From an uncultured Dehalococcoidia bacterium (GTDB taxonomy: Bacteria; Chloroflexota; Dehalococcoidia; UBA6926), in assembly GCA_964405845.1 (NCBI GenBank), contig CAYOPL010000012.1, positions 95,583 through 159,582 of the forward strand: a DNA stretch of 64,000 nucleotides, given 5' to 3'. Under the pieces are notes generated by a model, which was not told where the DNA came from, did not search any database, and was given only the letters and a program-made list of their open reading frames with translations. Positions 3,001 through 19,535 of the stretch are shown here, piece by piece (positions within the stretch are counted from its first letter, which is position 1; every line of letters starts with the position of its first letter). The translations under genes were made by a program, and so were the position numbers.

Positions 3001-5519
3001 CAGTCCACGCCCAATTCGGCCAGGGACTCCATGGAGTTTCGGAAAAGAACCCTCTGCCGTGAATGGCGAATCCAGTAGTCGGAATCGATCTGAACATCCT
3101 CCTCAAGAGGCTTTCCGGTAAAGTCGCATATAAGCGTGACCTTGGGCCTTTGCGGTTCACGGATGATGTCGGAAGCTACGCTCTTCAGTTGGTCCAGTAC
3201 CGGCTCCAACATTGCGCTGTGAAATGCCGCGCTCGGTGGCAGAAGCCTGACGCGAATCTCCTGCTCCTCGAACTTCTGGGCAACAGCGTTTACGTCCCCG
3301 GCGGGGCCGCTGATCACTTGGTTGATGCCGTGGTCGAGGCCTATGCAGAGGCGATCGTCGCCTGAAACAGCATGCTGCTCTTCAATCGCTTCCTGTATGG
3401 CGTCTTGCGGCGCGAAGATAGCCGCCATCGCGGCGCCCTCTGCCATCGGGCTCATGATTGTTCCGCGCGCAGTGACTAGGCGCATACCCTCTTCAAGTGA
3501 GTAAACGCCGGCAGCTTGCGCGGCGGCAAACTCGCCGAGGCTGTGTCCCGCGACGACGGACGGTGTAACACCAGCGCTTTCCCATAGGGCAGTCAGCATG
3601 CACTCAACTGCGTACGTTGCAGGCTGCGCCCAGGCCGAGTCATCAAGGTCGCCTGAGCGCCCAAACATGACATCAAGCAACGATTCGCCTCGTGCGTTCT
3701 GTACAACCGCTTCACAACGATCGAGGACTTCTCGCGCTACTGGCTCGGTCTCATAGAGCGTCTGAGCCATGCCCGGCCACTGGCTGCCCTGTCCTGTATA
3801 GACAAAAGCAATCTTTGAGGGAGCCGTTGTCGGGTTCTGGGAACCGTTCTCCGCTATACGGGCAAGGCCCTCTCGCAGCGAATCGACATCCTTATACACA
3901 ACACCCGAGCGATAGCGGAAATGGCTCCGTCCGATGCTCGTCGTCCACGTCAGGTCTGACAGGGCGGGGTCGGACGCGAGAGTATCCGGAGATGGCCCGC
4001 CGGACGTCTCACTTAGTCGGTCAAGATAGTGCCCCGCAAGTTCCCGCAGAGCCTCCGGTGATCTGGCAGATAGCGGCAAAAGTCGCGTTTGGCGTGGCGT
4101 GACCCCATCAGAGTCACCAGAACTGAGGGATTCCACTTCCTTGGGCGCGCCCAGAGGCCACATGGTTGTCCCGGTTGACAGAGACGGCGTAGCAGGCGCG
4201 CCGTAGCCTTCGATGACGACGTGGGCATTCGTGCCGGACCATCCGAATCCGCTGACGGCGGCTCGCGGCGGTCTGCCATCCACGTGCGGCCACTCCATCG
4301 CCTCGGTCGGCACGCGCAGATTGGCCGTCTCCCAGTCGATTGACGTGCTGGGATTCTCGAAGTTGAGGTGCTTGGGGATGATGCCGCGCCGCATGCCCAG
4401 CACAACCTTCATGATTCCTGCAACGCCTGACGCAGGCTCGAGGTGCCCAAAGTTCGTCTTGACGGATCCGATAATCATCGGTTGATCTGCCGGTCGTCTG
4501 CTGCCGTACGCGGCCGCCGCGGCTTGCAGTTCAGGGGGGTCGCCAACCGGGGTCGCGGTTCCGTGCGCTTCCAGATAATCCACGTCCATGGCGGTAAGCC
4601 CGGCTGAGGCCAGCGCATCGCGAATAACGTTTTCCTGCGCGGAAGCGCTCGGCACAGTCAAACCTTGGCTTGCGCCGTCTTGGTTGATTGCAGAGCCGCG
4701 AATAACACCCCAGATGCGGTCGCCGTCCCGTTCGGCATCGCTCAGGCGCTTGAGCACGATGATTCCGCAACCCTCGCCGCGGAGATAGCCGTCCGCCGCC
4801 TCGTCGAACGTGCGGCATATACCGTTGGGTGAGAGCATTCCCGCCTGTCTTCGCAGGAACATAACCCTGCCGGAGAGCATCGCGTTGACGCCTCCGGCCA
4901 AGGCAAGATCCGACTCTCCGCGTTGAAGGCCGGCAATCGCCTGGTGCGTGGCGACGAGGGACGATGAGCATGCTGTGTCGATAGCAATGGCAGGCCCCTC
5001 AAGGCCAAGCGTGTAGGAAACACGCCCGATAGCGGTATTAAGGGTGCTCCCGCTGGCCGCATAGAGACTGGTGGCGGGATCATCCAGTTCAATTGACGCG
5101 ACGGCCGAGTACCTGTACTCGTTGTTGGCAATGCCGCCATAGACGCCTGTGCGGGTTCCCTTGAGGCTATCCGGGTCGATCCCCGCGTCTTCAAGGGCGC
5201 GCCAACTCGTTTCCAGCATGAGCCGCTGCTGCGGGTCCAGCAGCTGCGCTTCTATCGGCGCAATTCGGAAGAACTCAGCGTCGAACTTGTCGATATCGTC
5301 GATGAAGGCCCCATAGTGCGTGACGTCGCTCTGTGTGGAGGGCATCTCAAGGAACTCGCCCATCCGGCCCGGCCCTTCACCGATTATTCCCTCTGTTCGT
5401 ACCATGGTGCCGGAGGCCAGCAGCCGCCAATAGGCATCGTAGCCGTCAGCACCGGGAAATCGGCACGCCATACCGATGATGGCGATGGGTTCGTCCGTAT
5501 GGGAGTTATTTCCTGCCAT
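1..5519 (-). CDS. Modular type I polyketide synthase, N-terminal part. The order is KS - AT - DH - C-methyltransferase - start of KR, and the gene continues beyond the window start (C-terminus off the edge).
   Basis: Reverse-strand translation from the ATG at 5519 gives [23 protein letters not shown]... The KS active site [12 protein letters not shown] has its D codon at 4977-4979. The AT motif GHSLGE is at about 3531-3548. A DH HPLLG-type region lies at about 2650-2700. The SAM-binding motif [13 protein letters not shown] of a cMT is at about 1080-1100. All checkpoints share one frame (codon top coordinate = 2 mod 3). The ORF is absent from the track because it is edge-truncated. Confidence 0.9.
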
Positions 5520-5657: not shown

Positions 5658-7310
5658 ATGTCAATCGTTCAAACGGCACTCGATAAACTTCCAGTTCGAC
5701 CCTCGTACAGCTGGGGCCAACTGCGCGGTGACGTTTTCGGCGGGCTAACCGCGGGCAGCATCGTCCTGCCCGCCTCCATCGGCTATGGTCTGATTTCCGG
5801 TCTGGGTGCCGTCGCCGGGCTCTATGGAGCTGTGGCGGTTAGCCTCTTTGGCGCGCTCTTTGGCGGCACCCGGGGGATGATCTCCGGCCCGAATATTCTC
5901 GTTACCCTGACGATGGCCGCCGTCGTCTCCCAATACGCCAACAGCCTTGCCGAGGCCGCAACGGCAGCCATTCTTGCCGGTCTGATTCAGATGGGCTTTG
6001 GCGCTCTACGGCTTGGGCGCTATGTCTCCTATATTCCGTATTCCCTGATTGCCGGGTTCTTCACGGCCTTTGGCATCCTTTTGATCATCAAACAAGGACT
6101 GCTTGCCTTCGGTGCATCCGCGGGCGGTACTGCGCTCGACAGCATCCGTGCATTTCCTGATGCGGCGCGAGACGCCAACCTGGAGGCCCTCGCGGTCGCG
6201 ATTTTCTGTGTTGCGTTGGGAGTGGCGTGGCGTGGAAGACTCTTGAAGATTGCCCCGTCTCAATTTGCCGTACTCGTCTGCGGGACAGTCGTGGGCGTTT
6301 TGTTCTTTGCAGGGGCGCCGACTATCGGGGCTATCCCACAAGGGCTGCCCGCGCTGGAACTGCCCCCCTTCTCACTTGATTTGGTAATCCGGCTTCTACA
6401 GCCCGCCTTTGCGATGGCTCTGTTGAGTTCTCTGGCGACACTCATCGTCGCTCTTCCCCTGGATACGATCACAGGTACCCAGCACAAGCCCAATCAGGAA
6501 TTGGGAGCGCAGGGCATCGGCAACGTGGCCGCCGGCCTCATCGGTGGCCTGCCCGGCGGCGTAACCCCCGGCACCTTCGTCAACGTGTTCAGCGGAGGAC
6601 GCACACAGGTGGCGGGATTGACCGTTTCCGCCCTTATCATCTCGGTCATCCTCTTCCTTGGCCCGATAGCAGAGCGCATTCCCTTGGCGGTCCTCGCAGG
6701 CATCCTGGCCATCAACGGCTGGAACGTCATAGATTGGCGGTTCGTCAAACGCCTGCATCGCGTGCCTGCCGACTACACAATCGTGATGCTCCTCACGTGT
6801 TCTCTCGTGCTGTTTGTGGACATCACTCTTGCGGTGGTAGCCGGTGTCGTCGTCTCCGCGATGACCGGCGCGAGACGGCGCGAGAAAATGGAAACCGAAA
6901 CGCTCATCTCCGCCCCTATTCTTGACAGCGTGTTCCTTGAGGACGATGAGGCAGACCCTTTCGAGGCGCGTGCGGGCATCGTTATTTTCCCTGATCGCGT
7001 CACGGTGGCCTCAACCCGTGAGGTGAGCCGCATCGTCCGTTCGGACATCCTCGGGCATCAGGTCGTCATCTTTGACATGTCCCGCACCTTCTTCATCGAC
7101 GATTCCGCTGCGGTGGCCATAGCGGACCTCATCAGGATCGCCGCTGTTCGCCGCCCGGGCCGCCTTGTCATCGCAGGACTGACAAGACCGGTCACGGAAA
7201 CTCTTGACGCCTTCGGTCTACGTGCCGCCTTGCCGGAAGGATTGATTGTTCCGGACATGGACACCGCAAGAGCCCGCGTACGCGACTTACTGGCCACCCG
7301 TTCACCCTGA
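5658..7310 (+). CDS. SulP family anion (sulfate/bicarbonate) transporter with a C-terminal STAS domain.
   Basis: MSIVQTALDKLPVRPSYSWGQLRGDVFGGLTAGSIVLPASIGYG... is a SulP signature, with multiple TM segments. The C-terminal STAS region reads VIFDMSRTFFIDDSAAVAIADL. The start was refined to the ATG at 5658, since the track ORF from 5316 overlaps the PKS start. The stop TGA lies inside the REP-like repeat. Confidence 0.85.
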   Translation: MSIVQTALDKLPVRPSYSWGQLRGDVFGGLTAGSIVLPASIGYGLISGLGAVAGLYGAVAVSLFGALFGGTRGMISGPNILVTLTMAAVVSQYANSLAEAATAAILAGLIQMGFGALRLGRYVSYIPYSLIAGFFTAFGILLIIKQGLLAFGASAGGTALDSIRAFPDAARDANLEALAVAIFCVALGVAWRGRLLKIAPSQFAVLVCGTVVGVLFFAGAPTIGAIPQGLPALELPPFSLDLVIRLLQPAFAMALLSSLATLIVALPLDTITGTQHKPNQELGAQGIGNVAAGLIGGLPGGVTPGTFVNVFSGGRTQVAGLTVSALIISVILFLGPIAERIPLAVLAGILAINGWNVIDWRFVKRLHRVPADYTIVMLLTCSLVLFVDITLAVVAGVVVSAMTGARRREKMETETLISAPILDSVFLEDDEADPFEARAGIVIFPDRVTVASTREVSRIVRSDILGHQVVIFDMSRTFFIDDSAAVAIADLIRIAAVRRPGRLVIAGLTRPVTETLDAFGLRAALPEGLIVPDMDTARARVRDLLATRSP

Positions 7311-7451: not shown

Positions 7452-8618
7452 CTACCCCCAGACGTTCTGAGCGGTCTCCGCGACAACCCGCAGCTTCGCG
7501 TTCTGCTCGTCGATACTGAGGCGATTGCCAACGATGGACGTGCCGAACCCGCATTGCGGGCTAATGGCCAACTGCTCGCGCGGGAAGTGATGAGCCGCCT
7601 CGGCGATTCTGCCTGCAAGCTCTGAAGGCGTCTCGGCGCGCGGTGTCTTTGTCGTAACTAATCCCAGCGCCACCGTCTTGTCGTCTGGCACGCCGCGCAA
7701 AGGTTCGAATGAGCCTGAGCGCTCATCGTCGTACTCCAGCATGAGCCGATCCGCGTTGACGCGCTGAAGCACCGGCTCGACAATCCGGTCGTAACCGCCT
7801 TCGGCCAGCCAACGGCTGCCCTGATTGCCTCGTCAAAGATGGAACGCGAACGTCACATCCGTGAAGCCGTCCATCACCGCGTTGTCCAGCTCAATCCCTT
7901 GCGTGATCCAGTCCTCTCCGGTCCGACCCTGGGACTCGTAGAACGCTGCCCATGTCGGATCGAGGATAAGAGGGTAGTGCGGGGCGTCGAGCTGGATATA
8001 CGTTGCGCCGAGCCTAATTAGCTCTTCGATCTCCTCGCGGATGATCTGTGCGACGTCACTCAGAAACGCATCAAGCGTGGGGTAAGCCTCAATAGACTTA
8101 CTCGGCGACCAGAAATTAGCGAATAGGCTGGGACTCGGCAGGGTCACCTTCAGCATGCGCGTCGTGCGGCCCCGGAGATACGTAAACTCTTCTGCCGACA
8201 GGTGACGCTTGCGCCGCAGCTTGCCGACGACACCGAGCGTCGCTGGCCGCTCCTTGGGGGCGTTCCCCACCCGCTCATCGCCACGCCAATCACCCCAGAG
8301 AAACGCGTCAATATCGAACTCACCGAATCCTTCCACCGCCTCGGGCATCTGGCTTTGGAAAGACAACCGCCGCATCTCGCCGTCCGTGAGAACCTGTAAC
8401 CCGGCGTCCTCTTGCGCCGCAACCGCGCCATCAACCGCGGCGTCCTCGATGCGCTTGAACTCTGAAGGCGTGATTCGTCCGGCCGCAACGTCCTCGCGTG
8501 CAGCGAGCAACTCCGGCGGCCTGATCAGGCTCCCAACCACGTCGGCATGCGGCAAATTCGGCATGCTGCGGAGTGTTGCATATCGCCGGGGCTTGGGCAA
8601 GCGATTGATGGTAGTCAT
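7452..8618 (-). CDS. Protein of the MetE C-terminal-domain family (cobalamin-independent methionine synthase / homocysteine methyltransferase-like, Zn-dependent). A single in-frame TGA at 7833-7835 interrupts the frame; it is either a candidate selenocysteine codon or a nonsense mutation.
   Basis: Track ORFs 7833..8681(-) and 7452..7772(-) are in the same frame (8681-7772=909). The translation ...IQLDAPHYPL...DVTFAFHL-TGA-RGNQGSRWLAEGGYDRIVEPVLQRVNADRLMLEYDDE...LAISPQCGFGTS matches MetE C-domain motifs: IQIDE, the H-x-C Zn site, the Glu ligand, and NPDCGL. The LPHADVVGSLIRP segment near the N-terminus resembles the MetE LPTTTIGSFPR motif. The start is uncertain; ATGs at 8618 and 8564 are both possible. 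Confidence 0.7.
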
Positions 8619-8630
8619 TCCAGATAAAAG

Positions 8631-8674
8631 TTGCATGCACAATAAATGTGTCTGATAATAATTGTTATATGCAA
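8631..8674. promoter_or_regulatory. AT-rich imperfect palindrome TTGCATGCACAAT-N17-ATTGTTATATGCAA in the divergent intergenic region between the MetE-like gene and marR. It is a candidate MarR operator or shared promoter region.
   Basis: This is a low-GC island in a GC-rich genome. Inverted half-sites can be read directly. It lies about 85 bp upstream of the MarR start at 8760. Confidence 0.35.
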
Positions 8675-8759
8675 ATAACAAGGACCGTCTGAAATCTCGG
8701 CTGCTTGGGCGCAGCGTACATGCTCTATACTGACCTCAAATCACCATGGCGATATACGA

Positions 8760-9245
8760 GTGACAGACAACCACGATCAATCTCAGGGCGGCAATGACTC
8801 CTCGCAAGAGGCGCAGCCTATGGGCTTGGGTATCCAGGTGACCAGCCTGATGAACGCGGTTCTCAGGGGCGCTGCGACTGAATTGGAGCCCTACAACATT
8901 ACTCCTTTGGAGTTCACAGCCTTGCGCATTTGCATGGCCAGGGGTGAGACCACCATGACGGAGTTGGCAGTCGTATTGCCTGTCGATACCTCCCGCACAA
9001 GCCGCACCGTGACCGGGCTGGTTGACAAGGGCTTGCTCCGCAGGCGCCGACGCCGAGACGACCGGCGTGTTGTCATGCTGCGGCTTTCCGAACAGGGAGT
9101 TGAATTGACGTCCACGCTCCAGGCCCTGCTGCAGGCCTTCGATGCCAAACTGACGGAGAACGTCACTGAGGATGAACTAAGCGTATTCGAATCCGTGATT
9201 TCAAGAATCGCGTCCAACTACGCTGCCATGCAGGAGACTGAATAA
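8760..9245 (+). CDS. MarR family transcriptional regulator.
   Basis: A winged-helix MarR signature is present: ITPLEFTALRICMARGETTMTELAVVLPVDTSRTSRTVTGLVDKGLLRR...RVVMLRLSEQG. Confidence 0.85.
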   Translation: MTDNHDQSQGGNDSSQEAQPMGLGIQVTSLMNAVLRGAATELEPYNITPLEFTALRICMARGETTMTELAVVLPVDTSRTSRTVTGLVDKGLLRRRRRRDDRRVVMLRLSEQGVELTSTLQALLQAFDAKLTENVTEDELSVFESVISRIASNYAAMQETE

Positions 9246-9304: not shown

Positions 9305-10144
9305 TTACGAAAACGGCTTGTTGGCAATCGCCTCACCGTATCCGACGGCAAGCAGCGCGCCGGGATCCCTCCGCCACTTCTCATAAGCGACGGCTATGTC
9401 ATCGGCGAGTTTCCTGGTGGCCACTCCGTAGCCAATCGCCTGCTCTCTGAGGCTCGGCGACAGGAACCAGCCGTAGACCAGGCGATGGATAAACTCGATT
9501 TCCTCGACCGAGTCGAATATGTCGAACGTCGCATTCATTCTAATGTTGGCAAATCCTGCCTTGAGAAGCTGGCCCTTTAGTTCCTTGCCCATCTGCGGAT
9601 GAGCATCGTCAGTCGCCAAAATGTCTTCGAACATATCCCATGCTTTCCTGAGAATGCCGAAGTCGGGCTCGGTGAAGCTGGACTCGCAGATCATCTCGCG
9701 GCAACCGATGATGCCGCCGGGTTTCAGGACTCGCATCACCTCTGTCAGCACGGCTTCCGTGTCCGGAACGTGCATCAGCACATTGTGGCAGTGGGCGACG
9801 TCGAAGTAGTCGTCCTCAAACGGAAGGTCCGATACGTCGGCAACCTGGAATATCGTGTTTGTCTGACCGCCTGCCTCCGCCACGGATCGCGCCAGGTCGA
9901 TCTGGGATTCCTCCATGTCGACGCCGTGCAGCTCCCCCGGTGAGACAGCCTGTGCCAGGCCAACTGATATGGTGCCGGGTCCGCAGCCGAAATCCAGAAC
10001 GCGAAGCCCCGGCCTCAGATAGGGAAGCAGATAGGCGGCGTTCTTCTGTGCGGTGAACCGCCGCATAGTCTCAACAAACTCATGGCCGAAGCCCATCGTG
10101 TAGTCGGGGGTTGAAGATGTGCGCTCAGTCATAGTGTCATTCAT
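9305..10144 (-). CDS. Class I SAM-dependent methyltransferase (Methyltransf_11/25 type).
   Basis: The motif I sequence VLDFGCGPGTIS is present, followed by HGVDMEE, the acidic FDVAHCHNVLMHVPD, and the post-II LKPGG. Confidence 0.8.
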   Translation of the reverse strand: MNDTMTERTSSTPDYTMGFGHEFVETMRRFTAQKNAAYLLPYLRPGLRVLDFGCGPGTISVGLAQAVSPGELHGVDMEESQIDLARSVAEAGGQTNTIFQVADVSDLPFEDDYFDVAHCHNVLMHVPDTEAVLTEVMRVLKPGGIIGCREMICESSFTEPDFGILRKAWDMFEDILATDDAHPQMGKELKGQLLKAGFANIRMNATFDIFDSVEEIEFIHRLVYGWFLSPSLREQAIGYGVATRKLADDIAVAYEKWRRDPGALLAVGYGEAIANKPFS

Positions 10145-10294
10145 GGACGTTCTGATCGTTCAGTCCGGACAACATGATTCCGCAAACACAACCCTGTAGG
10201 GCTGAAGATATGACACAATCCTGGCGCGCACCCTTTCCCCAGGTTTTCGCCTCTCGGGTTACGTTGATGATTGGGCGGGGGGTCTAAAGTAGCC

Positions 10295-10376
10295 TATCAC
10301 TCGGATATAACCGTCCCGTAACTGTTTCACCGATTTCCTATGACTTTGTGTAACGATTCAGAGAACTCCGCCAGAA
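10295..10376 (+). promoter_or_regulatory. Regulatory cassette copy A: three direct GTAAC(T)ATTC-like sites (ggatataaccgt / ccgtaactgtttc / gtgtaacgattc), followed 17 nt later by a -10-like cagaat.
   Basis: Its architecture matches copies B-E, with site spacing of about 12-13 and about 35 bp. Confidence 0.4.
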
Positions 10377-10694
10377 TCGCCACCCCCGCTCACCCTGAGC
10401 CTGTCGAAGGGCGGGAATAATCCCCCATTTTTCGCGCCACGGTCATCGAGGTGCGATCGCGGGTGGACACGCTACTGGCGCCCCCGTGTCGGGATCCGGG
10501 GGCTGCTCAGGCCCAGAAGGCGGGTCTGGGAACAGGTAGAGACTTTTGGGGTGCGACAGCGTAACGACCAAAGGGAATTTCGAGGTGTGGTCGCCACCGG
10601 ACTTATGCTGTTGCCGGCACAGGCTTTCGCCGTACAAGGGCCCCGTGGGGCGCCTCCCGACATTGCACTGCGAATCTCGCCGAGTGCCACTATA

Positions 10695-10775
10695 CCACTC
10701 GGATATAACCGTACCGTAACTATTCGTCCGATTCGGCATCACTTCCTGTAACTATTCCAGGAACTCCGCCAGAAT
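10695..10775 (+). promoter_or_regulatory. Regulatory cassette copy B (ggatataaccgta / ccgtaactattcg / ctgtaactattcc + cagaat).
   Basis: Direct repeats can be read in the sequence. It lies immediately 3' of gene 10809..11654(-). Confidence 0.45.
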
Positions 10776-10808
10776 CACTACGCCCGCTCACCATGAACTT
10801 GCCGTGGG

Positions 10809-11654
10809 TTAGCGCCAAGCCGCGCCCCTCGGGTGCATCCTTACACAGTAGGTGCTTCCTATCGAAGTCCACCGGGCAGGGGTTCCCGCCGTGTAGTACC
10901 CGTCACGGGGACAGACGTATTCTTTTGGAGTTGTAGCCGCATACCGGGTCTGGTCCAGCGTCATTCTTGAGTAATCGGGCACTACAGACCATTCGTTGCC
11001 GTCGTTCGGACAAGCATAGTTGGAGTCTTTGCTGGCCTTTACGAACCCTCCGTTGGAATCAGTGCGGACGCAAGATTCAGTGTCCTGTCGGCTGAACGCA
11101 AAACGCTCTTGAACGGACGCGCAGTATTTGGACAACCCTGAACTGGCCAGATCACCCACTCCGTAAGGCGAAAAGTATGAATAGACAGCACTGAGCAGGA
11201 TGCCAATGTTAGGCGCGTTTATCGTCGCCACCCCCGGGATATCCAGGAATGGGAATCCCTCTCTGTTATCAGAGTAGAAGCTCGAATAGATTACGCACGC
11301 AGCCTTCGCAGGTGTCTGTGTGGCCCGTCGCGGAGTTGAAGGAGACGTGCCTTGTGTCGGTGGTGTCGTTGCGCGTGGAGTTGGAGTGGCGGTGGCCTCG
11401 GGCTGCCCCGGGCCGTCATCCTCGTCCTCATCGCCATCCTCGTCGCCGTCCTCGTCTTCATCCTCCTCGTCCTCCTCTTCCGGAACCGGAGTCGGAGTGG
11501 CGGTCGCCAGGACAGGCGGCGGCAGCAAAGGACCCGGATTGCCCGGATCGGGAAGATCAGGCAGAGCCATCACAGAGGCGGCTGTCAGCATCAGCGATGC
11601 CATCAAGGCAATCGTTACAACAACACCAAGGGAAAATCGTCCACGCTTGCTCAT
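10809..11654 (-). CDS. Secreted protein of unknown function. It has a signal peptide, a Pro/Thr-rich linker, a poly-acidic (E/D) low-complexity linker, and a C-terminal Cys-rich domain of about 160 aa.
   Basis: It begins MSKRGRFSLGVVVTIALMASLMLTAASVMA (signal peptide), followed by the EEEDEEDEDEDGDEDGDEDEDD tract. The C-terminal domain has 6 Cys (CVIYSSFY...YCASV...CVRTD...YACPNDG...YVCPRDG...YCVRMH). I recognise no known domain. Confidence 0.6.
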   Translation of the reverse strand: MSKRGRFSLGVVVTIALMASLMLTAASVMALPDLPDPGNPGPLLPPPVLATATPTPVPEEEDEEDEDEDGDEDGDEDEDDGPGQPEATATPTPRATTPPTQGTSPSTPRRATQTPAKAACVIYSSFYSDNREGFPFLDIPGVATINAPNIGILLSAVYSYFSPYGVGDLASSGLSKYCASVQERFAFSRQDTESCVRTDSNGGFVKASKDSNYACPNDGNEWSVVPDYSRMTLDQTRYAATTPKEYVCPRDGYYTAGTPARWTSIGSTYCVRMHPRGAAWR

Positions 11655-12451
11655 CAGCTGCCCCTCCTTTCCTGGGAAGCAGTCGAGTACGCGTTATAGG
11701 CGGCCACCGCCGCCTCGTGAGCCTCCGTGTAGCGGGCGTAGAGCGCCTCAAGACGGTCCAGGCCGTCCTGATCAGTCGGGCAGGTTGAGACCGCCTCAAC
11801 GCTGCCGCACAGGGAAATCGCCAGCTCTTTGTACTCACGCTCAGCGCTCGAACGCTCCTCAAGTCGTGAATAGCTCTCATGGGCAAGACTATAGAAGGCG
11901 ACGTCCTCGGTGAGCGTTGCGGCCGTCTCTGACAGTTCCCGATGTTCGACAAAGAGGGTGTCGTAGCGACCCTGGATGTCCGCCTTCTCTCGCGACAATG
12001 AAGCAACGGTGGCTTGCAGCCGTTCACGCTCCTGGTCGCTCCGGGAGACGACCAGCGAATAGCGCGTGTTCTCGGCCTTCAGATCATTGCGGACATCTTC
12101 CAGGCCCTCGCGTTCCGCGCGTTCTCTCTCTAGTGCGGCCTCGGAGTCCACGAGCTGCCGCCCGGTCTCCTGCACGACCGAAGAAAGAGAATCGCGCTCA
12201 TTTCCCAGTGAGATTTTCGTTGCCCGCTCCACCTCAAGCGCAGCTTCGTTCTCGCTGAGATCCAGCGTGGTCGCGTTGAGTTGGCCCCGCGTCCCGCTCA
12301 GTTCATTCAGGGAGATGGCCAGCCCAATGCTGGCGGCGCCCAGAAGCGCGATCGCGAGAATCAGTCCAACGATCCGCTTGTTGTTCGGCGCGCTGTCGAA
12401 AGCGACAACGGCCATAGCTATTCCAAGGCTCAATCTGCTCATAACTCGCAT
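11654..12451 (-). CDS. Membrane-anchored coiled-coil protein of unknown function.
   Basis: An N-terminal TM segment (LSLGIAMAVVAF ... IVGLILAIALLGAASIGLAI) is followed by a long charged heptad-like region (ALEVERATKISLGNERD...LERERAEREGLEDVRNDLKAENTRY...). The start ATG at 12451 has an AAGGAAAGGA SD upstream; the track start at 12511 is TTG. The stop overlaps the start of the downstream gene by 1 nt, indicating an operon. Confidence 0.55.
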   Translation of the reverse strand: MRVMSRLSLGIAMAVVAFDSAPNNKRIVGLILAIALLGAASIGLAISLNELSGTRGQLNATTLDLSENEAALEVERATKISLGNERDSLSSVVQETGRQLVDSEAALERERAEREGLEDVRNDLKAENTRYSLVVSRSDQERERLQATVASLSREKADIQGRYDTLFVEHRELSETAATLTEDVAFYSLAHESYSRLEERSSAEREYKELAISLCGSVEAVSTCPTDQDGLDRLEALYARYTEAHEAAVAAYNAYSTASQERRGS

Positions 12452-12784
12452 GGCACAGGTCGACCATCCTTTCCTTCTTAGTGGGTGCAGCCGGCGCTTG
12501 TCCAAGCGCAAAAAATGTAGGTGAATGCCGAGAGAGAGGTTAGGGACTAATGCTCCATTCTCACGCTGTCAGCCCTCGTGTTGGGAGCGAAGGCTGCGCA
12601 GACCCATAGCGGGCCTGGATACAGGTGGAACCTATGGAGTGCAACAACACAGCGATCGCGAAAAGGCTCCCCGCGCGGTAGCCACCGGACGTGACGCTGC
12701 GTTGGCACAGTATTTCGTTGTACAAGGGCCAAGTGGGATGCCTCCCAACATGCACTACGAATCTGACCGAGGGCTACTATACCA

Positions 12785-12862
12785 CGCGAATATAACTATT
12801 CCGTAACTATTTGGCTCCCTCTCTATCACTTTTCGTAACTATTCGCCGAAAAGCAACAAAAT
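12785..12862 (+). promoter_or_regulatory. Regulatory cassette copy C (gaatataactatt / ccgtaactatttgg / tcgtaactattcg + caaaat).
   Basis: Three direct repeats sit between gene 12944..13996(-) and gene 11654..12451(-). Confidence 0.45.
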
Positions 12863-12881
12863 CAATGCCGTAGCGCACTTA

Positions 12882-12932
12882 CCCGCTCACCCTGAGCCTT
12901 CGCCCCGCTCACCCTGAGCCTGTCGAAGGGTG
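12882..12932. repeat. REP-like repeat; two tandem module A copies.
   Basis: cccgctcaccctgagccttcgcc + ccgctcaccctgagcctgtcgaagggtgagcc. Confidence 0.75.
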
Positions 12933-12943
12933 AGCCCCAGTCG

Positions 12944-13996
12944 CTACGCCCCCAGGGCCATAAGCACTCCCTCAAGCCCCGCCAGTTCCTCCTCATTCAG
13001 GCACGCGAACAGGTCGAATCCGGCGATGGCCGCCTCGTTGAAATCGACGGACGAGGACTGCGAAGGGTCGCCGCCAATGGGGGAGGCGATGGTAGCGATA
13101 TAAGTCGGGTGGCTGCGGATGAAGTCGCCCGCGCACGCCGCGGACGCATCGCTGAGATCTCCAATCTGGGCCTCAGTGGCAGCGAGCAGGAACGCGACGA
13201 CGCTATCCAACTCAAGGCATTCGGCCGCGCTGACGCCAAGCCCCGCTGCCCTGAGCGGCGTTGTGCCCACCATCGCTACGTACTCCGCCTCGGAGAGCGT
13301 GTCACGCACGCAGGACGCTTCAGACTCTGAGAGCAGGGCCACAAGGTCTTCCCCCGTGAGGGGTGAGAGATTGTCGATAGAGGTGTAGAGCTCGATCAGA
13401 GCGACTGCTTTCTCGTTCTCCGTCATGCAGTCGTAGAAGCCGACAAGGATGTCGCGTGTCTCCTCGCCGTCGAACGTGGTTGTCTCCGGCAATTCAAAGC
13501 CAAGGCGAGCGTAGATGAACTCAGGGTGTTCGAGGGCAAAGTCGGCGATGCACGCGCGGCTTTCGTCGCTGCGTCCACCGGCTGCGGCGTCAAGGAACGC
13601 GACGCCAACAAGCACAGCGTTCTCAGGGGTCAGGCATCCGAATATCGACGCGGCAGCCGCAGGATCTCCGCCGCCTGACGCGAGCAACGGAAAGCTCAGC
13701 ATGGCCTCGTACACGGCATCGCCCAAAACGCCCCTGATACAGGCTGCCTCCTGTTCAGCGAGACGGTCGAACAGGTCTTTGCCCGTGGTTGTCGGGCCGA
13801 GGACGAAGTCCCGCATCGAAAGGACTTCCGGAACGGGTGTCGGCGTGGCCGTCGGAAGCGGAGTTGCCGTAGCAGTCGCCGTGGGTTCCGGGGTAGGCGT
13901 CGGCGGCTCCGAGCATCCAATGAGCGTTAGTGCCAGGAGGAAGATTACTCCCGCGGCAAGTAGTTTGAATCGCAGCATTCCCGTCTCTCGGTGCAT
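12944..13996 (-). CDS. Lipoprotein of unknown function with 3-4 internal repeats of a Cys-containing alpha-helical module of about 90 aa.
   Basis: The signal peptide plus lipobox is LALTLIGCSEP, followed by a Pro/Thr linker. The repeated modules are ACIRGVLGDAVYEAML / ACIADFALEHPEFIYARL / SCVRDTLSEAEYVAMV / ACAGDFIRSHPTYIATI. The start is either the ATG at 13996 or 13978 (MLRFKLLAAG). Confidence 0.6.
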   Translation of the reverse strand: MHRETGMLRFKLLAAGVIFLLALTLIGCSEPPTPTPEPTATATATPLPTATPTPVPEVLSMRDFVLGPTTTGKDLFDRLAEQEAACIRGVLGDAVYEAMLSFPLLASGGGDPAAAASIFGCLTPENAVLVGVAFLDAAAGGRSDESRACIADFALEHPEFIYARLGFELPETTTFDGEETRDILVGFYDCMTENEKAVALIELYTSIDNLSPLTGEDLVALLSESEASCVRDTLSEAEYVAMVGTTPLRAAGLGVSAAECLELDSVVAFLLAATEAQIGDLSDASAACAGDFIRSHPTYIATIASPIGGDPSQSSSVDFNEAAIAGFDLFACLNEEELAGLEGVLMALGA

Positions 13997-14047
13997 ATTC
14001 AGTGTTTCAACTCCGGGTCGTACCCGCCTCTTCGCCTCGCGGCGTAA

Positions 14048-14143
14048 TTCCGTATAACCCTATCGCATCCATACAACCAATCCGTAACTATTCGGCTGCC
14101 TATCTATCACTTCTTGTAACCATCCGCCGAAATATCGAAAAAT
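14048..14143 (+). promoter_or_regulatory. Regulatory cassette copy D (ccgtataaccc / tccgtaactattcgg / cttgtaaccatcc + aaaaat).
   Basis: Three direct repeats sit between the adhesin gene stop (14193) and the lipoprotein gene start. Confidence 0.45.
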
Positions 14144-14192
14144 CCCTGCCCTCCCGTTCACCCTGAGCCTTCGGATCAGGCGTGCGCCGCCA

Positions 14193-16934
14193 TTAATCGT
14201 TCGGACGGGCGGTGCGGGTGAAGGACCATTCACCCCAGCCGTTGGCGTTCTTGGCCCGGACTTCGACCTCGTAGCGCGTGCCGCCGGTGAGGCTAGAGAT
14301 TCTCTGCTGCCTTGGATTGCTGCACCCGACGGATGGATCACAGATGCGCTGGGCCGGGCGCGGGAAGAGCACGGTGCCCTCAGTCCAGGTGGTGGCCCCC
14401 GCTGCGCGGTGGCGCACCTGGTAGGCGTAGGGCAGCGAACCGGTGGTGACCAGGTCCCACTCGACGAACAGGTTCTGGCTGCTGCCGGGGATGACCCTGA
14501 CTCGCGGCGGTATCACGGTCGTGGTGTTGCCGGCGGCCAAGGTGACGGTGAGGATCTCCGACTGGAAGCCCAATTTCGGCGAGTCCGTGGTCATCGGATC
14601 GTTGTCATTGCCGTCGGTGCGGGCGCGGACGTGGACCTGCCAGGTCCCGTTGGCCAGGCCGGTAAACGTGTGGCTGCGGTCGCTCACGCCCTTGACGGTG
14701 TTGGTCCAACTCCCGCTGGTGCCGGAGCGGTGGCGGACGATGTATTGGTCGATGCTGCCGACAGCGCCGATGGTGCTGGCTTCGCCCCACTCGACAACCA
14801 GCTTGCTGTTGCCGCCGGACGCGAACACCGCAGGGGCGCCCGGTCCGCCTTCCTCGCCGGAACTCTGGGTAGAATTGGTAGTCGCGCCCTCAATCGCGTG
14901 CCGGGCGAAAACCGAGATTGACCCGGTGGCTTCAGGCCGGACCAGGGTCCCTTTGGGGCAGTTTACTGTATCAGTTCCACCGCCGTCTGTGACGTCGCAG
15001 GTGGTCGTACCCCATTCCTTATTGCTTTTGGTTGTAATGAAGACTTGGCCGCCGATATGCTGAGGCCCGGTAGTGAACCAGACCTGGGTCGGCTCGGACC
15101 AGACCCGGGTGGCCGGTAGCCAGACCGACCAGGCGTTGGTGGCGGTCGAGGCGGGTTGGCCGCTGGCGTGGGTGCGGGCGGCGACGCGGACGGTGTAGTA
15201 CGCGCCGTCGGTCAACCCGGTGATGCGGTGAGCTGTGGCGGTAGCAAGTGCAGTGGCGCTGCTCGCGGTTCCGCTGCAGCCCGTCGTGCTGTTGGGATCG
15301 GGACAGGCCTTCCATTCCACAACAAATCCGACCATCGTGCGTCCCGTCGGCGTAGTGAACGAGTCCCAGTCAACTTCGATGCCATTGTTGTTGTTGGCCA
15401 CCGCAGTCACGCCGGACGGGCTGTTTGTGGCGGCGGTCGCCGATGGGTCCTGGCCGGTGATCGTGACCCTCTGGCCGGTGGTCGAGTACTTATCGTCGGA
15501 GGCGTCGTAGGCGGAGATGCGGAAGTCGTAGGCGACGTGGGGCTCGATGCCGTAGAAGATGAAGTGCGGCTGGCTGGCGTCGGTCTGCGTGTCGACGTAC
15601 CTCCACGGCAACGCGCTGTAACCGCGCCAGTAGTCGTCGCTGGAACGCTTGAGTTCGAGGTCGAACGTCTCGCGGGCCTCGCAGCCGGTGCCGTTGACGC
15701 TGGTGATCCGGCCGCTGACGGCGTTGCGGGCGTAGGGCTTGATCGCGAGCGTGATGCAGGCGTCCGGCACACTGTTGGCTTCCATCACGATGTAGTCGTC
15801 GGAGTCGCCCTCGTCGTACTGGATGCGCACGGAGAAGACGTAGTCGCCCGGGGTCAGGCCGCGGAAGGTGTGCGTCCGCGTCTCAGGGGAAACTGAGGCG
15901 GTCCAACTGACGGGACTCGACTCGCTGATGGCGGAGAGGACGAAGCCGGTCACTTCGCAGGACTCGTCCATGTTGTCGGGCAGCGTCCAGGAGACGACCG
16001 CGCCCTTGCCGATGGTCAGGGCGGAAACCGAGGAGGGCGCGGTTCGCTGGCAGTACACCTCGGTATCGTCGGAGGGCTCGAGTTGCCAGTTGACTTTGTG
16101 ACCTGAGTCGTGGGCCAGGCCGGAGTGGGCAAGGTTGGCGGCAGTCCCCGTGGCGGAGGACGCGATTGTGCCGCCGTTGAGCCTGAGGGAGTTGGGGAGG
16201 ACGGCTATGCCCTGGGTGGAGTAGTTGGGTTCTACGACGGTGTGGGCGAAGGTGAGCACATTTGCAGCGACGCCTGGCACGTAGGAGGCCCACTTGGTCC
16301 CCCAGTGGGCAGGGTCCATGTCAATGGCGATCTGCGGTGTTCCAGTGACCGTCACGTCTTCGCTAAAGGCGACCGACACCTCGATCACCTCGCCGTTGGC
16401 GTAGGTGTCGTCCTCGCCGGGGTTGGAGGTGATCGCGACGGCGGGCACGGTGGGCCCGGTGGGCCCGGTCACTTTCCAGTTCACCTTGTGGTTCGCGTCG
16501 TGGTCCAGTCCGGAATGGGACAGCGTAGCCGCTGTCCCCGATGAGACGGACGTGATCGAACCGCCGTAGAGTCTGAGGCTGTCCGCCAGCACGGCGATGC
16601 CCTGCGTGGAGTAGTTGGGTTCGACCACGGTATGAGCGAAGACGATGCTGCTGCCGCCGCTGCCGCTGTTGTAGAAGGCCCATTTCGTGCCCCAGTCGGC
16701 CGGGTCCATGTCGATCTTGATATACGGCGTGCCGGTGACGTTCACCGTTTCGCTGAAGGTCAGCGTCACGCGGATGTTCTGACCTAAGGCGTAGGTCTTG
16801 TCGGGGCCGGCGCCGGAGGTGATGGCCACGCCGGTCACTGAAGGGCCGTCCGCGGCGTTCACCGAACTGCCTCCCCACAAGGACACGGCGAGAGCCGCGA
16901 GGAAGAGGACAAGCACGGCTGCGGTGCGGCGCAA
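14193..16934 (-). CDS. Large secreted cell-surface protein (adhesin-like). It has two tandem N-terminal repeat domains of about 150 aa, followed by several fibronectin type III / Ig-like beta domains.
   Basis: The signal peptide is MRRTAAVLVLFLAALAVSLWGGSSVNA. Repeat 1 (VTGVAITSGAGPDKTYALGQNIRVTLTFSE...MDPADWGTKWAFY...HTVVEPNYSTQGIAVL...HKVNWKV) is duplicated as ...VAITSNPGEDDTYANGEVIEVSVAFSE...MDPAHWGTKWASY...HTVVEPNYSTQGIAVL...HKVNWQL. The downstream regions are FN3-like, rich in T/S/G with W..Y..V..R patterns. Confidence 0.65.
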   Translation of the reverse strand: MRRTAAVLVLFLAALAVSLWGGSSVNAADGPSVTGVAITSGAGPDKTYALGQNIRVTLTFSETVNVTGTPYIKIDMDPADWGTKWAFYNSGSGGSSIVFAHTVVEPNYSTQGIAVLADSLRLYGGSITSVSSGTAATLSHSGLDHDANHKVNWKVTGPTGPTVPAVAITSNPGEDDTYANGEVIEVSVAFSEDVTVTGTPQIAIDMDPAHWGTKWASYVPGVAANVLTFAHTVVEPNYSTQGIAVLPNSLRLNGGTIASSATGTAANLAHSGLAHDSGHKVNWQLEPSDDTEVYCQRTAPSSVSALTIGKGAVVSWTLPDNMDESCEVTGFVLSAISESSPVSWTASVSPETRTHTFRGLTPGDYVFSVRIQYDEGDSDDYIVMEANSVPDACITLAIKPYARNAVSGRITSVNGTGCEARETFDLELKRSSDDYWRGYSALPWRYVDTQTDASQPHFIFYGIEPHVAYDFRISAYDASDDKYSTTGQRVTITGQDPSATAATNSPSGVTAVANNNNGIEVDWDSFTTPTGRTMVGFVVEWKACPDPNSTTGCSGTASSATALATATAHRITGLTDGAYYTVRVAARTHASGQPASTATNAWSVWLPATRVWSEPTQVWFTTGPQHIGGQVFITTKSNKEWGTTTCDVTDGGGTDTVNCPKGTLVRPEATGSISVFARHAIEGATTNSTQSSGEEGGPGAPAVFASGGNSKLVVEWGEASTIGAVGSIDQYIVRHRSGTSGSWTNTVKGVSDRSHTFTGLANGTWQVHVRARTDGNDNDPMTTDSPKLGFQSEILTVTLAAGNTTTVIPPRVRVIPGSSQNLFVEWDLVTTGSLPYAYQVRHRAAGATTWTEGTVLFPRPAQRICDPSVGCSNPRQQRISSLTGGTRYEVEVRAKNANGWGEWSFTRTARPND
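15990..16850. repeat. Intragenic tandem duplication of about 430 bp x2 encoding the two N-terminal repeat domains of the adhesin-like protein.
   Basis: Near-identical peptide blocks (HTVVEPNYSTQGIAVL, MDPAxWGTKWA) occur twice. Mirrored + strand track ORFs overlap the same region. Confidence 0.6.
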
Positions 16935-17014
16935 GGACAGGGCAGGGGCTGTGTTGGAGAGCCTCGTGACGTCACCTCATCTCTATCTTTTTGCCAGTTC
17001 GTCCGAGTCTACCA

Positions 17015-17092
17015 AGTAGCTGTAACTATCCCGTAACTATTCGACCGACTCCCCATCACTTCTTGTAACCATCCACCAAAATACGCATAATT
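17015..17092 (+). promoter_or_regulatory. Regulatory cassette copy E, which includes a good sigma70-like promoter (TTGTAA-N17-CATAAT) for the hybrid kinase/regulator gene. The sites are gctgtaactatcc / ccgtaactattcg / cttgtaaccatcc.
   Basis: The -35 TTGTAA lies at 17063-17068 and the -10 CATAAT at 17086-17091, with a 17-nt spacer. The same triple-repeat layout is seen in copies A-D. Confidence 0.5.
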
Positions 17093-17171
17093 GCCCGTAG
17101 AAACGCAGACTCCAACGCCCACTAGGGACGAAACCCACGGGGTATCCCGAGGCCCATTAAGAGGTGACAAG

Positions 17172-19535
17172 TTGAGTCAACAAGACCAGCTGATGCGAGA
17201 GGTGGCGGAGCTTCGAGAGCGTCTCTCCAGGCTGAGCGAGGCTGGCTTCCGCATCAACGAGAGCTTGGACTTCGACACGGTGTTGCAGGAGGTGGTGGAC
17301 AGCGCCCGGACGCTGACCGACTCACGCTACGGGGCGATCACCATCCCGGGCGAGGTCTTCCGACGCCCCACGTTCATCACCTCTGGTCTGACCGAGGAGG
17401 AGCACCAGGGGCTGTGGGACATGCAGGAGGGACTGGGGTTCTTCGAGTATCTCAGCGGCCTGGAGGAGCCCCTGCGGGTCTCTGATATCGACAGCCATCT
17501 GAAGGCATTGAACATGCCTGCATTCCTGCCCTCGGTGGTGGTGAGTTCCGTGCTGGTAGCCCCGATACGCCATCAGGGAGTTGGTGTGGGCACCATCTAT
17601 CTCGCTCATGGCCCTGACGGTGGGGAGTTCACCCAGGAAGACGAGGACACGCTGGTCCTGTTCGCTTCCCAGGCGGCGATGGCCATCGCCAACGCTCGCA
17701 GGCACCGGGAAGAGCGGCGGGCTCGAGCAGACCTGGAGACCCTCTTGGAGGCGTCCCCCGTTGGCGTCGTAATCCTCGATGCCGTCATGGGAGTGCCGAA
17801 ATCCTTCAACAAGGAAGCTAGGAGAATCGTGGGCAGCCTGCTCAATCCTGACCAGTCCCCGGAGGACCTCATCGACCTGGTGACCTACAGGCGGGCCGAT
17901 GGTCGAGAGGTCACCCTGCGAGAGTTCCCGATGACCGAGATCCTCACCACCCGGGAGACCGTACGGGCCGAAGAGATCGTCATGAGTGTCCCGGACGGCC
18001 GCAGCGTCACTACCCTTGTTAACGCCACACCCATCTTCTCGGATGAAGGTGAAGTCGAGTCGGTAGTCGTCACTTTTCAGGACATGGCCAACGTGGAGGA
18101 GATGGCGCGGCTGCGAGCCGAATTCCTGGCGATGGTTAGTCACGAGTTGAGAACTCCTCTGACCTCCATTAAAGGTTCTGTCTCCACAATCATGGATGCG
18201 GGGGCGGACCTTGACCCCGCCGTGGCTCGCCAGTTCGTTCGGATTATCAATGACCAGGCCGACCACATGAACGCCCTGGTTGCAGACTTGCTCGACGTGG
18301 CCCGCATTGAGACGGGCACGCTGCCGGTTGATCCTGAGCCTGCCGAGGTGGCCGTATTGATGGACAGGGCGCGGAGCGCCTTCGTCAGTTCTTCGGGAGA
18401 CAGGAACAACTTCACAATAGACATCGAGCCGGATCTGCCTCTGGTGATGGCGGATAGGCGGCGCATCGTCCAGGTGCTGGGCAACCTGCTTTCTAACGCG
18501 GCGCGAAATTCCCCGGAGTCGGCGGTCATCAGGGTAACCGCTGTGCGGGATGGTGTTCATGTTGCGTTCTCTGTGGTCGACGAGGGACGCGGCATCCCGG
18601 CGGAGAGCCTGCCGCACCTGTTCCGCAAGTTCTATGGAGCGCAGTCCGAGGAGCAGGGAGGAGACACGGGGCTGGGTCTGGCCATCTGCAAGGGCATTGT
18701 GGAAGCGCATGGCGGCCGCATCTGGGCTGAGAGCGACGGGCCCGGAATGGGAGCGCGTTTCACCTTCACCCTTCCTGCGCTCGAAGACTCCGGAAACGAC
18801 ACAGCCGGTAGATTCCCGCCGGTCTCAACGCGACGTGAAGAAAGGGAAGAGGAGCGGCTGCGCGTTCTGGCCGTGGACGACGACCCCAACGATCTCCGCT
18901 ACGTTCGTGACACTCTTGCTAGGTCGGGCTATGCCCCCATCTTGACCGGAGACCCGGAGGAGGCGCTCCGTCTCGTGGAGGAGGAGAAGCCGGAACTCGT
19001 GTTGCTTGATCTGATGCTCCCGGAAACGGACGGCATCGAGCTGATGAAGGACATCCTCGATGTGACCGATGTGCCGGTTATCTTCCTGTCCGCCTACGGA
19101 CGAGAAGAGCTCATCGCCAGGGCCTTCGACATGGGGGCCACCGATTACGTCGTGAAGCCCTTCTCCCCCACGGAACTCTCAGCCAGGATCAGGGCGGCCC
19201 TGCGAAGACGCGCGGCCGCAGAGCCGACAAAACCTTACGTGCTCGGCGATCTGACCGTCGACTACGCCGGGCGCAGGGTGACCCTCGCCGGGAATCCTGT
19301 CCATCTCACACCGACTGAATATCGGGTGCTGGCCGAACTCTCGGCCAGCGCAGGACAGGTGATGACATATGAGCGCCTTCTCGTTCAGGTTTGGGGCGAG
19401 AAAAGCGACGGTGACGTGCGCCCAATGCGCACTATCGTGAACAAGCTCCGCCGCAAGCTGGGAGAGGACGCGGAAACCCCCACCCGCATCTTCACCGAAC
19501 CCCGCGTCGGCTACCGTATGCCGAAAGGCGAGTAG
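17172..19535 (+). CDS. Single-protein two-component system. The domain order is coiled-coil/GAF - PAS - HisKA - HATPase_c (sensor histidine kinase) - REC receiver - OmpR/PhoB-type winged-helix DNA-binding domain.
   Basis: The H-box reads EFLAMVSHELRTPLTSI, and the ATPase region contains GLGLAICKGIVEAHGGRIWAESDGPGMGARFTFTLP. The REC domain reads LAVDDDPNDLRYVRDTLARSGYAPILTGDPEEALRLVEEEKPELVLLDLMLPETDGIEL. The trans_reg_C region reads LTPTEYRVLAELSASAGQVMTYERLL...VRPMRTIVNKLRRKL...RVGYRMP. The probable start is TTG 17172 (SD AAGAGGTGA upstream) or ATG 17193; the track ORF begins at an in-frame TTG at 17091. Confidence 0.85.
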   Translation: MSQQDQLMREVAELRERLSRLSEAGFRINESLDFDTVLQEVVDSARTLTDSRYGAITIPGEVFRRPTFITSGLTEEEHQGLWDMQEGLGFFEYLSGLEEPLRVSDIDSHLKALNMPAFLPSVVVSSVLVAPIRHQGVGVGTIYLAHGPDGGEFTQEDEDTLVLFASQAAMAIANARRHREERRARADLETLLEASPVGVVILDAVMGVPKSFNKEARRIVGSLLNPDQSPEDLIDLVTYRRADGREVTLREFPMTEILTTRETVRAEEIVMSVPDGRSVTTLVNATPIFSDEGEVESVVVTFQDMANVEEMARLRAEFLAMVSHELRTPLTSIKGSVSTIMDAGADLDPAVARQFVRIINDQADHMNALVADLLDVARIETGTLPVDPEPAEVAVLMDRARSAFVSSSGDRNNFTIDIEPDLPLVMADRRRIVQVLGNLLSNAARNSPESAVIRVTAVRDGVHVAFSVVDEGRGIPAESLPHLFRKFYGAQSEEQGGDTGLGLAICKGIVEAHGGRIWAESDGPGMGARFTFTLPALEDSGNDTAGRFPPVSTRREEREEERLRVLAVDDDPNDLRYVRDTLARSGYAPILTGDPEEALRLVEEEKPELVLLDLMLPETDGIELMKDILDVTDVPVIFLSAYGREELIARAFDMGATDYVVKPFSPTELSARIRAALRRRAAAEPTKPYVLGDLTVDYAGRRVTLAGNPVHLTPTEYRVLAELSASAGQVMTYERLLVQVWGEKSDGDVRPMRTIVNKLRRKLGEDAETPTRIFTEPRVGYRMPKGE

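Follow-up and report, generated by a model that had tools for sequence, protein, structure and literature searches.

A 64-kb stretch of contig CAYOPL010000012.1 from an uncultured Dehalococcoidia bacterium (64,000 nucleotides, hereafter the window) carries five copies of a direct-repeat cassette of ~86-95 nt, all in a single orientation and all within the region 10.2-17.1 kb, with none elsewhere in the 64 kb. The flanking genes all run on the minus strand except that of an all-in-one regulator, here named REG. The arrangement is probably an autoregulated local regulon in which REG would bind the cassettes. The five copies and the elements distinguished within cassette E are as follows.

10291..10376, minus strand: cassette A, an additional, lineage-specific copy; the SAM-methyltransferase start (10144) lies ~140 nt downstream
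10689..10774, minus strand: cassette B, with -10 TGgTATAGT, followed by the B-type structured leader
12776..12861, minus strand: cassette C, with -10 TGgTATAGT, followed by a structured leader and then the p285cc-p281 operon
14057..14142, minus strand: cassette D, upstream of the 350-aa lipoprotein-like gene
17006..17091, minus strand: cassette E, in the divergent intergenic region between the FN3 gene and the regulator
17006-17014, minus strand: extended -10 TGgTAGACT of cassette E, facing the FN3 gene
17021-17038: proximal tandem half-sites of cassette E
17055-17069: distal site GTTACA/GTGAT of cassette E
17086-17091, plus strand: -10 CATAAT of the cassette E promoter, which has -35 TTGTAA and faces the regulator

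The regulator and the presumed target genes (lengths in amino acids, aa) are listed below.

17172..19535, plus strand: REG, 787 aa, a soluble GAF-PAS-HisKA-HATPase_c-REC-Trans_reg_C fusion
14193..16934, minus strand: FN3 protein, secreted, 913 aa, with multiple FN3 domains and signal peptide MRRTAAVLVLFLAALAVSLWGGSSVNA; presumed target of cassette E
12944..13996, minus strand: p350, a 350-aa putative lipoprotein (…LIGC…); presumed target of cassette D
11654..12451, minus strand: p285cc, a coiled-coil protein with a membrane anchor, encoded by the first gene of a two-gene operon
10809..11654, minus strand: p281, secreted, with an acidic low-complexity region and a Cys-containing C-terminal domain
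9305..10144, minus strand: class I S-adenosylmethionine (SAM)-methyltransferase, UbiE/ArsM-like

An earlier, sequence-only reading of the window had described five cassette copies, and repeat search, nhmmer and pattern counts found all five present, with the coordinates and motif essentially right. In the repeat search they form family D1 (five copies of 80 nt), and a 398-bp tandem unit (family D5) is part of the basis for calling cassette A. An nhmmer profile built from the five cassettes recovered exactly those five from the 64 kb, all on one strand, with E values of 1e-22 to 1e-24, and the next-best match had E=2.2. The decamer GTAACTATTC, allowing at most one mismatch, gave 11 matches against 0.9 expected in the window, a 22-base architecture pattern gave 5 against 0.00, and a tandem half-site pattern gave 6 against 0.9, five of the six being cassettes; beyond these, the window has no tandem site. 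A match to GTAACTAATC at 7654 lies inside a coding sequence and was set aside as chance.

The cassettes had been said to serve secreted or surface proteins. The presumed targets extend beyond these: the SAM-methyltransferase is a constant one, standing behind a cassette in all syntenic loci, and in one genome a MetE-like gene is another. The predicted transcription start site (TSS) of cassette D lies ~54 nt from the ATG at 13996. Searches of Pfam and NCBIfam gave no family for p350 or p281, and just weak coiled-coil/SMC noise for p285cc. The most conserved target is p285cc, with 86-91% identity across the loci tested, while p350 is absent from all other syntenic loci. The start of p281 overlaps the stop of p285cc; its D/E-rich low-complexity tract comes from a 12-nt periodic repeat at 11414-11479, and, at 40-80% identity, p281 is conserved less well than any other gene of the locus, its copy in the related locus L005 appearing degraded. 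The FN3 gene contains an internal tandem duplication at 16083-16848 with a 390-nt period (families D3 and D4, 71-75% identity), which amounts to two copies of a ~130-aa domain near the N-terminus.

Cassette anatomy and promoter faces

Cassettes were aligned as reverse complements, using the window's five and then 9, 17 and 21 copies that included related loci. A total of 22 cassettes were examined in eight loci, namely the window, the syntenic loci L001, L003, L005, L006, L007 and L009, and the remote locus L004. The minus-strand consensus is gcg.a.TT....GaAT.GTTACA.gAAGTgAt-N14-aAtAGTTACGG.At.GTTAtAtc...gTGgTA.agT, and in the 21 strict copies from these loci the information content peaks at GaAT.GTTACA.gAAGTgAt, aAtAGTTACGG.At.GTTAtAt and TGgTA.agT. 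The half-sites comprise three good AT.GTTAY repeats and one degenerate GTGAT, arranged as two tandem pairs. The distal pair, AT.GTTACA-N4-GTGAT, has a 10-bp periodicity and lies at about -73 to -55. The proximal pair, AGTTACG-N5-GTTAYA, has an 11-bp periodicity, starts 32 bp after the distal pair and lies at about -41 to -22, and its spacing is invariant across the 21 copies. The sequence-only reading had recognized three sites and placed the second 12-13 bp from the first and about 35 bp from the third; these distances are corrected here to 11 bp (start to start) and 32 bp. The conserved ATCACTT that it noted between sites 2 and 3 is present, and is reread as the degenerate fourth half-site, 10 bp from site 3.

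The end of the proximal pair is separated by 9 bp from the -10 hexamer TAnnnT, which is kept in 20/21 copies. In the information profile, the conservation maxima of TGnTAnnnT are the TG of an extended -10 together with T-12, A-11 and T-7. The minus strand has no usable -35, as no TTGACA-like hexamer was found at 16-18 bp. Tandem half-sites of 6-7 bp, a 10-11 bp periodicity and a position abutting the -10 and replacing the -35 were all found, as in class II sites. The layout is probably that of an OmpR/PhoB-type site standing in for the -35, to which the regulator would bind.

In 22/22 copies, what lies beyond the -10 is either a gene start, at a distance of 45-320 nt, or the conserved leader RNA, whose conservation sets in directly after the -10. 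A gene start on the opposite side as well was found in regulator-facing copies only. A sigma-70 scan of 9-18 kb returned a single match, the plus-strand TTGTAA-N17-CATAAT of copy E, which the sequence-only reading had already picked out. Such a generic scan misses the minus-strand promoters because these have no -35, and the earlier preference for the plus strand is explained by the fact that a simple sigma-70 scan finds only the plus-strand REG promoter.

The plus-strand CATAAT, 17 bp from TTGTAA, is perfect in all seven regulator-facing copies. Among the 14 other copies, the essential A of the plus-strand -10 is lost in four (CGGAAT/AGGAAT), and the spacing has drifted in one, copy A of L007. 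These observations bear on whether every copy is bidirectional, in which case the (T/C)TGTAA-N17/18-nAnAAT of copies A-D would fire antisense into the 3' end of the upstream convergent gene. Ten of the 14 copies that do not face REG retain a -10-like hexamer with A2 and T6, as bidirectional firing would have it, but the other four have G at the essential -11, in contrast to the seven perfect REG-facing hexamers, and the drifted L007 spacing speaks against it too. Moreover, antisense transcripts would run straight into a REP hairpin, and nothing is conserved downstream on the plus strand. Bidirectional firing from all copies is highly unlikely, and the antisense promoter that had been offered as an option for copies A-D is probably vestigial. 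As judged from the alignments, the functional reading of copies A-D is that of the minus (gene) strand, and the cassette is best described as a predicted two-faced promoter region whose target-facing side is maintained everywhere and whose other side is maintained only where it would drive the regulator.

Regulator, distribution and proposed circuit

The sequence-only reading had called the regulator a GAF-PAS-HK-REC-OmpR fusion (HK, histidine kinase), and the domain architecture agrees. The H-box SHELRTP and the receiver Asp (LLDLMLP) are present, and REG was found to have no membrane segment and no hydrophobic N-terminal segment. Its Trans_reg_C match has an E value of 1.6e-18. For the REC-winged-helix portion KdpE and MtrA are the top matches, the best solved-structure relative being E. 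coli KdpE (E 5.5e-40), and REG keeps the three DNA-contact residues that correspond in the alignment to KdpE R193, R200 and T215. REG has thousands of close homologues, the top 120 of which are 74-100% identical.

REG adjoins cassettes in 7 syntenic loci. The identification of copy E as the regulator's own promoter was borne out by TTGTAAC-N16-CATAAT, which is found in all 10 loci examined where the regulator is at least 78% identical to REG. Recognition helices were compared among three regulators at least 82% identical to REG with an aligned C-terminus; the regulators of the window, L001 and L002 share exactly the helix RPMRTIVNKLRRKL, and the GTTAC repeats are kept in all three. In a 78% homologue (L011) the helix changes R to H, I to M and N to S, and the operator is the inverted GGTAAC-N5-GTTACC. 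No GTAAC was found near the starts of homologues at most 74% identical (L012/L018 and more distant). That operator and recognition helix change together hints weakly at co-evolution, with REG as the binder. The proximal cassette site GTTACG-N5-GTTATA was also compared with the KdpE half-sites TTTATA-N5-TTTACA and is similar, a resemblance from which specificity is not derivable.

Two further loci from the next clade out, L002 and L010, have a REG orthologue (82% identical) divergent from a 46% paralogue. The L002 intergenic region contains CATAAT with TGTAAC-N5-TGTAAC 16 bp upstream, L010 has TGTAAG-N5-TGTAAC, and in both a second GTAAC repeat pair precedes a TGnTAnnAT facing the paralogue. 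The paralogue has the same all-in-one architecture (L002 1-9767, L010 3-8236), and the gene of a giant protein comes after it on the same strand, with a called product of 10,660 aa in L002 and of at least 1,728 aa in L010. Regulators of the REG family seem habitually to adjoin very large surface proteins. As a separate observation, the ~75-nt 5' untranslated region (UTR) of REG (window 17092-17171; …GTAGAAACGCAGAYTCC…GGACGAAACC…GAGGCCCATTAAGAGGTGAC) is highly conserved in orthologues with 84-88% protein identity, and may carry a regulatory structure of its own.

Run against 185,579 species genomes, with one genome per species, the strict cassette pattern gave four stretches (a lower bound), all in Dehalococcoidia metagenome-assembled genomes (MAGs). 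Three of the four are the same syntenic locus, with MetE-like, MarR, methyltransferase, p281, p285cc and REG genes adjacent, and on the complete 1.87-Mb chromosome OZ242203.1 all 3 copies lie within that one locus. L004, the remaining stretch, consists of one cassette on a different contig of a MAG that also has the syntenic locus; it is followed after ~45 nt by GGAGG-N6-GTG, a signal peptide and a 683-aa secreted He_PIG/Ig-domain protein. The relaxed 22-base cassette pattern gave 0 matches in Joint Genome Institute (JGI) metagenomes, and a metagenome scan for regulator homologues gave mainly distant paralogues without the motif.

The sequence-only reading had allowed that the repeats might be merely a miniature inverted-repeat transposable element (MITE) if they were scattered genome-wide, and the scans found one locus and one extra site. 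A small mobile element or recombination site (MITE, REP or attC-like) with incidental promoter features would account for multiple copies punctuating a gene array and for the variable gene content between them (FN3 and p350 present or absent, p285cc-p281 deleted in L007). That variation is, however, explained by ordinary homologous recombination between repeats; terminal inverted repeats and target-site duplications were looked for and none was seen, the orientation relative to the downstream gene is fixed in 22/22 copies, and the restricted distribution in species genomes, together with the absence of matches in the JGI metagenomes, also speaks against mobility. The cassette can hardly be such an element.

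The minimal arrangement, found in L003, L006 and L009, has two cassettes, each with a leader, the first between REG and p285cc-p281 and the second before the methyltransferase. The FN3 gene is inserted beside REG in the window and L001, and p350 also in the window, each with its own cassette, while the extra cassette A, between the B leader and the methyltransferase, is found in the window, L001, L005 and L007. Loci L007 and L008 have no p285cc-p281, and a cassette and leader precede the MetE-like gene. Set against L006 and L009, the stretch L007 9300-10030 has a B-type leader immediately after the REG-facing cassette, a junction as expected for deletion by homologous recombination between two cassettes. 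Window copy E in its distal half, and copy C in its proximal half, both correspond to the one ancestral REG/p285cc cassette, and recombination or duplication across copies therefore accompanied gene gain and loss. The ancestral state would have been one divergent REG/p285cc intergenic region and one cassette before the methyltransferase; further cassettes would have come from duplication or recombination in step with the gain (FN3, p350) or loss of genes.

The sequences show the repeat architecture, its conservation and orientation relative to genes, its restriction to one locus, and the domains and residues of the regulator; which protein binds, that it activates rather than represses, and where transcription starts are inferred. 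The cassette is thought, with somewhat better than even confidence, to be an asymmetric two-faced promoter/operator for a KdpE-like OmpR/PhoB-type domain, most likely that of REG, acting as an activator of the targets. Phosphorylated REG, a constitutive dimer through its HisKA/kinase core, would occupy the proximal tandem half-sites, take over the contact normally made at the -35 and bring RNA polymerase to extended -10 promoters that have no -35, while a second REG dimer would occupy the distal site, three helical turns upstream. The FN3 surface protein, the lipoprotein, the p285cc-p281 operon and the methyltransferase (through its own cassette A) would be activated in this way. Where a copy faces REG, its distal site is at once the -35 (TTGTAA) of a good sigma-70 promoter, an overlap that would provide autoregulation.

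Several points weigh against this proposal. Relative to transcription, the half-sites read GTTAC at the target promoters but GTAAC at the REG promoter, so that one of the two promoters may be under repression rather than activation. Repression would be served equally well by a site that covers -41 to -22 of an extended -10 promoter. Of the half-sites, the distal GTGAT is weak. Because the cassette is so restricted to its locus, 4-6 promoters per genome are all that underlie the term regulon. Diverged copies escape the strict pattern (one in L003, one in L007), and the genome-wide counts are therefore lower bounds. A MarR-family gene (8760-9245) is likewise conserved in the locus.

The first two of these points lead to the question of whether REG binds and represses, occluding constitutive extended -10 promoters and exerting negative autoregulation by sitting on its own -35. 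In its favour, the -35 of REG lies under the distal site and the proximal site extends from -41 to -22; the -35/-10 of the REG promoter is near consensus as it stands, with a 17-bp spacer; and extended -10 promoters are able to work without a -35. However, tandem repeats ~10 bp upstream of a -10 without a -35 are where activators of the OmpR/PhoB family classically bind, for instance at pho boxes, and several target -10 hexamers are weak (TAGGCT, TAGGGT, TAGACT), suggesting dependence on an activator. Repression by REG is considered unlikely, though still a serious alternative.

The conserved MarR gene, and the position of the remote L004 cassette on a different contig from REG, would also suit a promoter/operator read by another factor, either the neighbouring MarR-family protein or an unlinked regulator, with REG adjacent by coincidental synteny. 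MarR proteins bind palindromes, whereas the cassette has only same-orientation repeats with an 11-bp periodicity. KdpE, of all solved proteins the nearest to the REG output domain, has a similar half-site, and its contact residues are conserved in REG. GTAAC repeats also lie on the REG -35 even with different neighbours (L002, L010), and operator changes track recognition-helix changes. Another factor is a decidedly unlikely reader of the cassette, and REG is most likely its binder.

Leader RNA and accompanying features

A structured leader of ~225 nt occurs in two paralogous types per locus, as follows.

12537..12769, minus strand: C-type leader RNA, starting just after the cassette C -10; 5' UTR of p285cc
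10445..10682, minus strand: B-type leader RNA, paralogue of the C leader with 77% identity
L001: leader orthologues at 6265-6497 and 4185-4419
L003: leader orthologues at 6650-6882 and 4727-4955
L005: leader orthologues at 7641-7873 and 5765-6003
L006: leader orthologues at 4589-4821 and 2717-2953
L007: leader orthologues at 9647-9885 and 7471-7705
L009: leader orthologues at 9597-9829 and 7701-7935

The leader precedes p285cc, the methyltransferase and, in L007, the MetE-like gene. The B leader is the direct 5' UTR of the methyltransferase in L003, L006 and L009; in the window it is orphaned, a REP hairpin and cassette A having been inserted, and it ends at the REP hairpin before cassette A. 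A consensus structure of 46 pairs was derived from 14 sequences, with 95.9% of cells paired against 36-50% in slid controls. Compensatory changes were found at 9 pairs, and most of the variation lies between the two paralogous types, which leaves few independent events. An open reading frame (ORF) from a conserved ATG is similar in the B and C copies, and was rejected as a gene since frameshifting indels among orthologues break it. Rfam gave nothing at E<=1 over 9-18 kb and nothing at E<=10 on the leader beyond chance-level matches. A Rho-independent terminator or expression platform was also sought at the 3' end of the C leader, where the fold scored no higher than shuffled sequence (z +0.55). 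On covariation and conservation the leader is predicted to be a structured non-coding RNA, and it could be a new riboregulator or riboswitch-like element.

The sequence-only reading had associated a hairpin module with copies A-D. The hairpin is present beside them, and it is not part of the cassette, belonging instead to a dispersed REP-like family that is replaced in orthologous loci by other hairpins at the same positions (e.g. TTCCCGC-TTTC-GCGGGAA). The family (CTCACCCTGAGCCTGTCGAAGGG, 23 nt each) has 11 copies in the window, all on the plus strand.

7301, 10389, 12908, 21633, 22423, 34654, 34788, 38758, 55284, 56292, 58426, plus strand: positions of the REP-like hairpins

The MetE-like (Meth_synt_2) gene at 7452-8681 (minus strand) has a single in-frame TGA at 7833-7835 within the motif TFAFHL*RGNQGSRW. 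The TGA is also found in L001, L005 and L007, and L009 and L006 have Cys at this position, which lies in an H-x-C motif resembling the MetE zinc-ligand motif. The pattern suggests a selenocysteine (Sec)-containing methyltransferase that ORF callers split in two. The fold of the hairpin after the MetE-like TGA was not significant (z -1.75).

It is tentatively proposed, as a possibility open to considerable doubt, that cassette and structured leader together form a portable two-layer circuit, an all-in-one sensor plus a riboregulator, for surface proteins (FN3/Ig-like) and methyl-transfer enzymes, in which cassette recombination would wire newly acquired surface genes in or out. To our knowledge, essentially no transcription-factor/operator pairs have been characterized for uncultured Dehalococcoidia of this group, which is apparently sponge-associated. 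If REG binds, the locus would be a rare fully sequence-defined circuit for such organisms, comprising sensor, operator, promoters and targets, and the soluble GAF-PAS kinase/receiver/winged-helix protein would be a candidate OmpR-type counterpart of the Bacteroides hybrid two-component systems (HTCS), in a family with thousands of close homologues. The comparative loci show promoter-module duplication accompanying gain and loss of surface-protein genes, and the leader RNA and the MetE-like Sec/Cys pair are testable leads in their own right.

Comparison with known systems

The cassette resembles the pho box and other OmpR/PhoB class II sites in having direct repeats with an 11-bp periodicity ~10 bp upstream of the -10, in place of the -35, in having a second upstream site ~3 helical turns away, and in the adjacent regulator gene with the same sites in its own promoter, which suggests autoregulation. 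It differs in its half-site (GTTAYR), in the fusion of REG to its own kinase, in that its binding and activation are predictions, and in its two-faced design, where the dimer site proximal to one promoter serves as the distal site of the opposite promoter.

The KdpE operator of kdpFABC has the half-sites TTTATA-N5-TTTACA (PMC3264566). The cassette half-site is likewise a 6-bp nTTAYA direct repeat with a 5-bp spacer, but it begins with G where the KdpE half-site has T, and AT(A/G) is conserved in its flank. REG occurs without a KdpD-type sensor and without kdp genes. The cassette sites overlap the -35, whereas the kdp operator sites lie upstream of it rather than overlapping.

In the Bacteroides HTCS, histidine kinase, receiver and DNA-binding domain are combined in one polypeptide, and these regulators control adjacent loci of surface or secreted function; they are transmembrane proteins with periplasmic sensors and an AraC-type DNA-binding domain (PMC11253607). 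REG too joins HK, REC and a DNA-binding domain in a single polypeptide beside surface and secreted loci, but it is soluble, with GAF-PAS sensors and an OmpR-type winged helix.

The operator of WalR/VicR is TGTWAH-N5-TGTWAH, and WalR regulons consist of cell-surface genes. The plus strand of the cassette, TGTAAC-N5-CGTAAC, fits this hexamer-N5-hexamer repeat, a possible resemblance. The REG output domain, in contrast, is closer to KdpE and MtrA than to YycF, and REG does not have a WalK-type architecture. Control by the cassette would be of a known kind, like that of a pho-box or KdpE-type operator, and the element itself does not represent a novel type; its unusual traits are that it is two-faced, that the module has been duplicated and that the regulator is a fusion.

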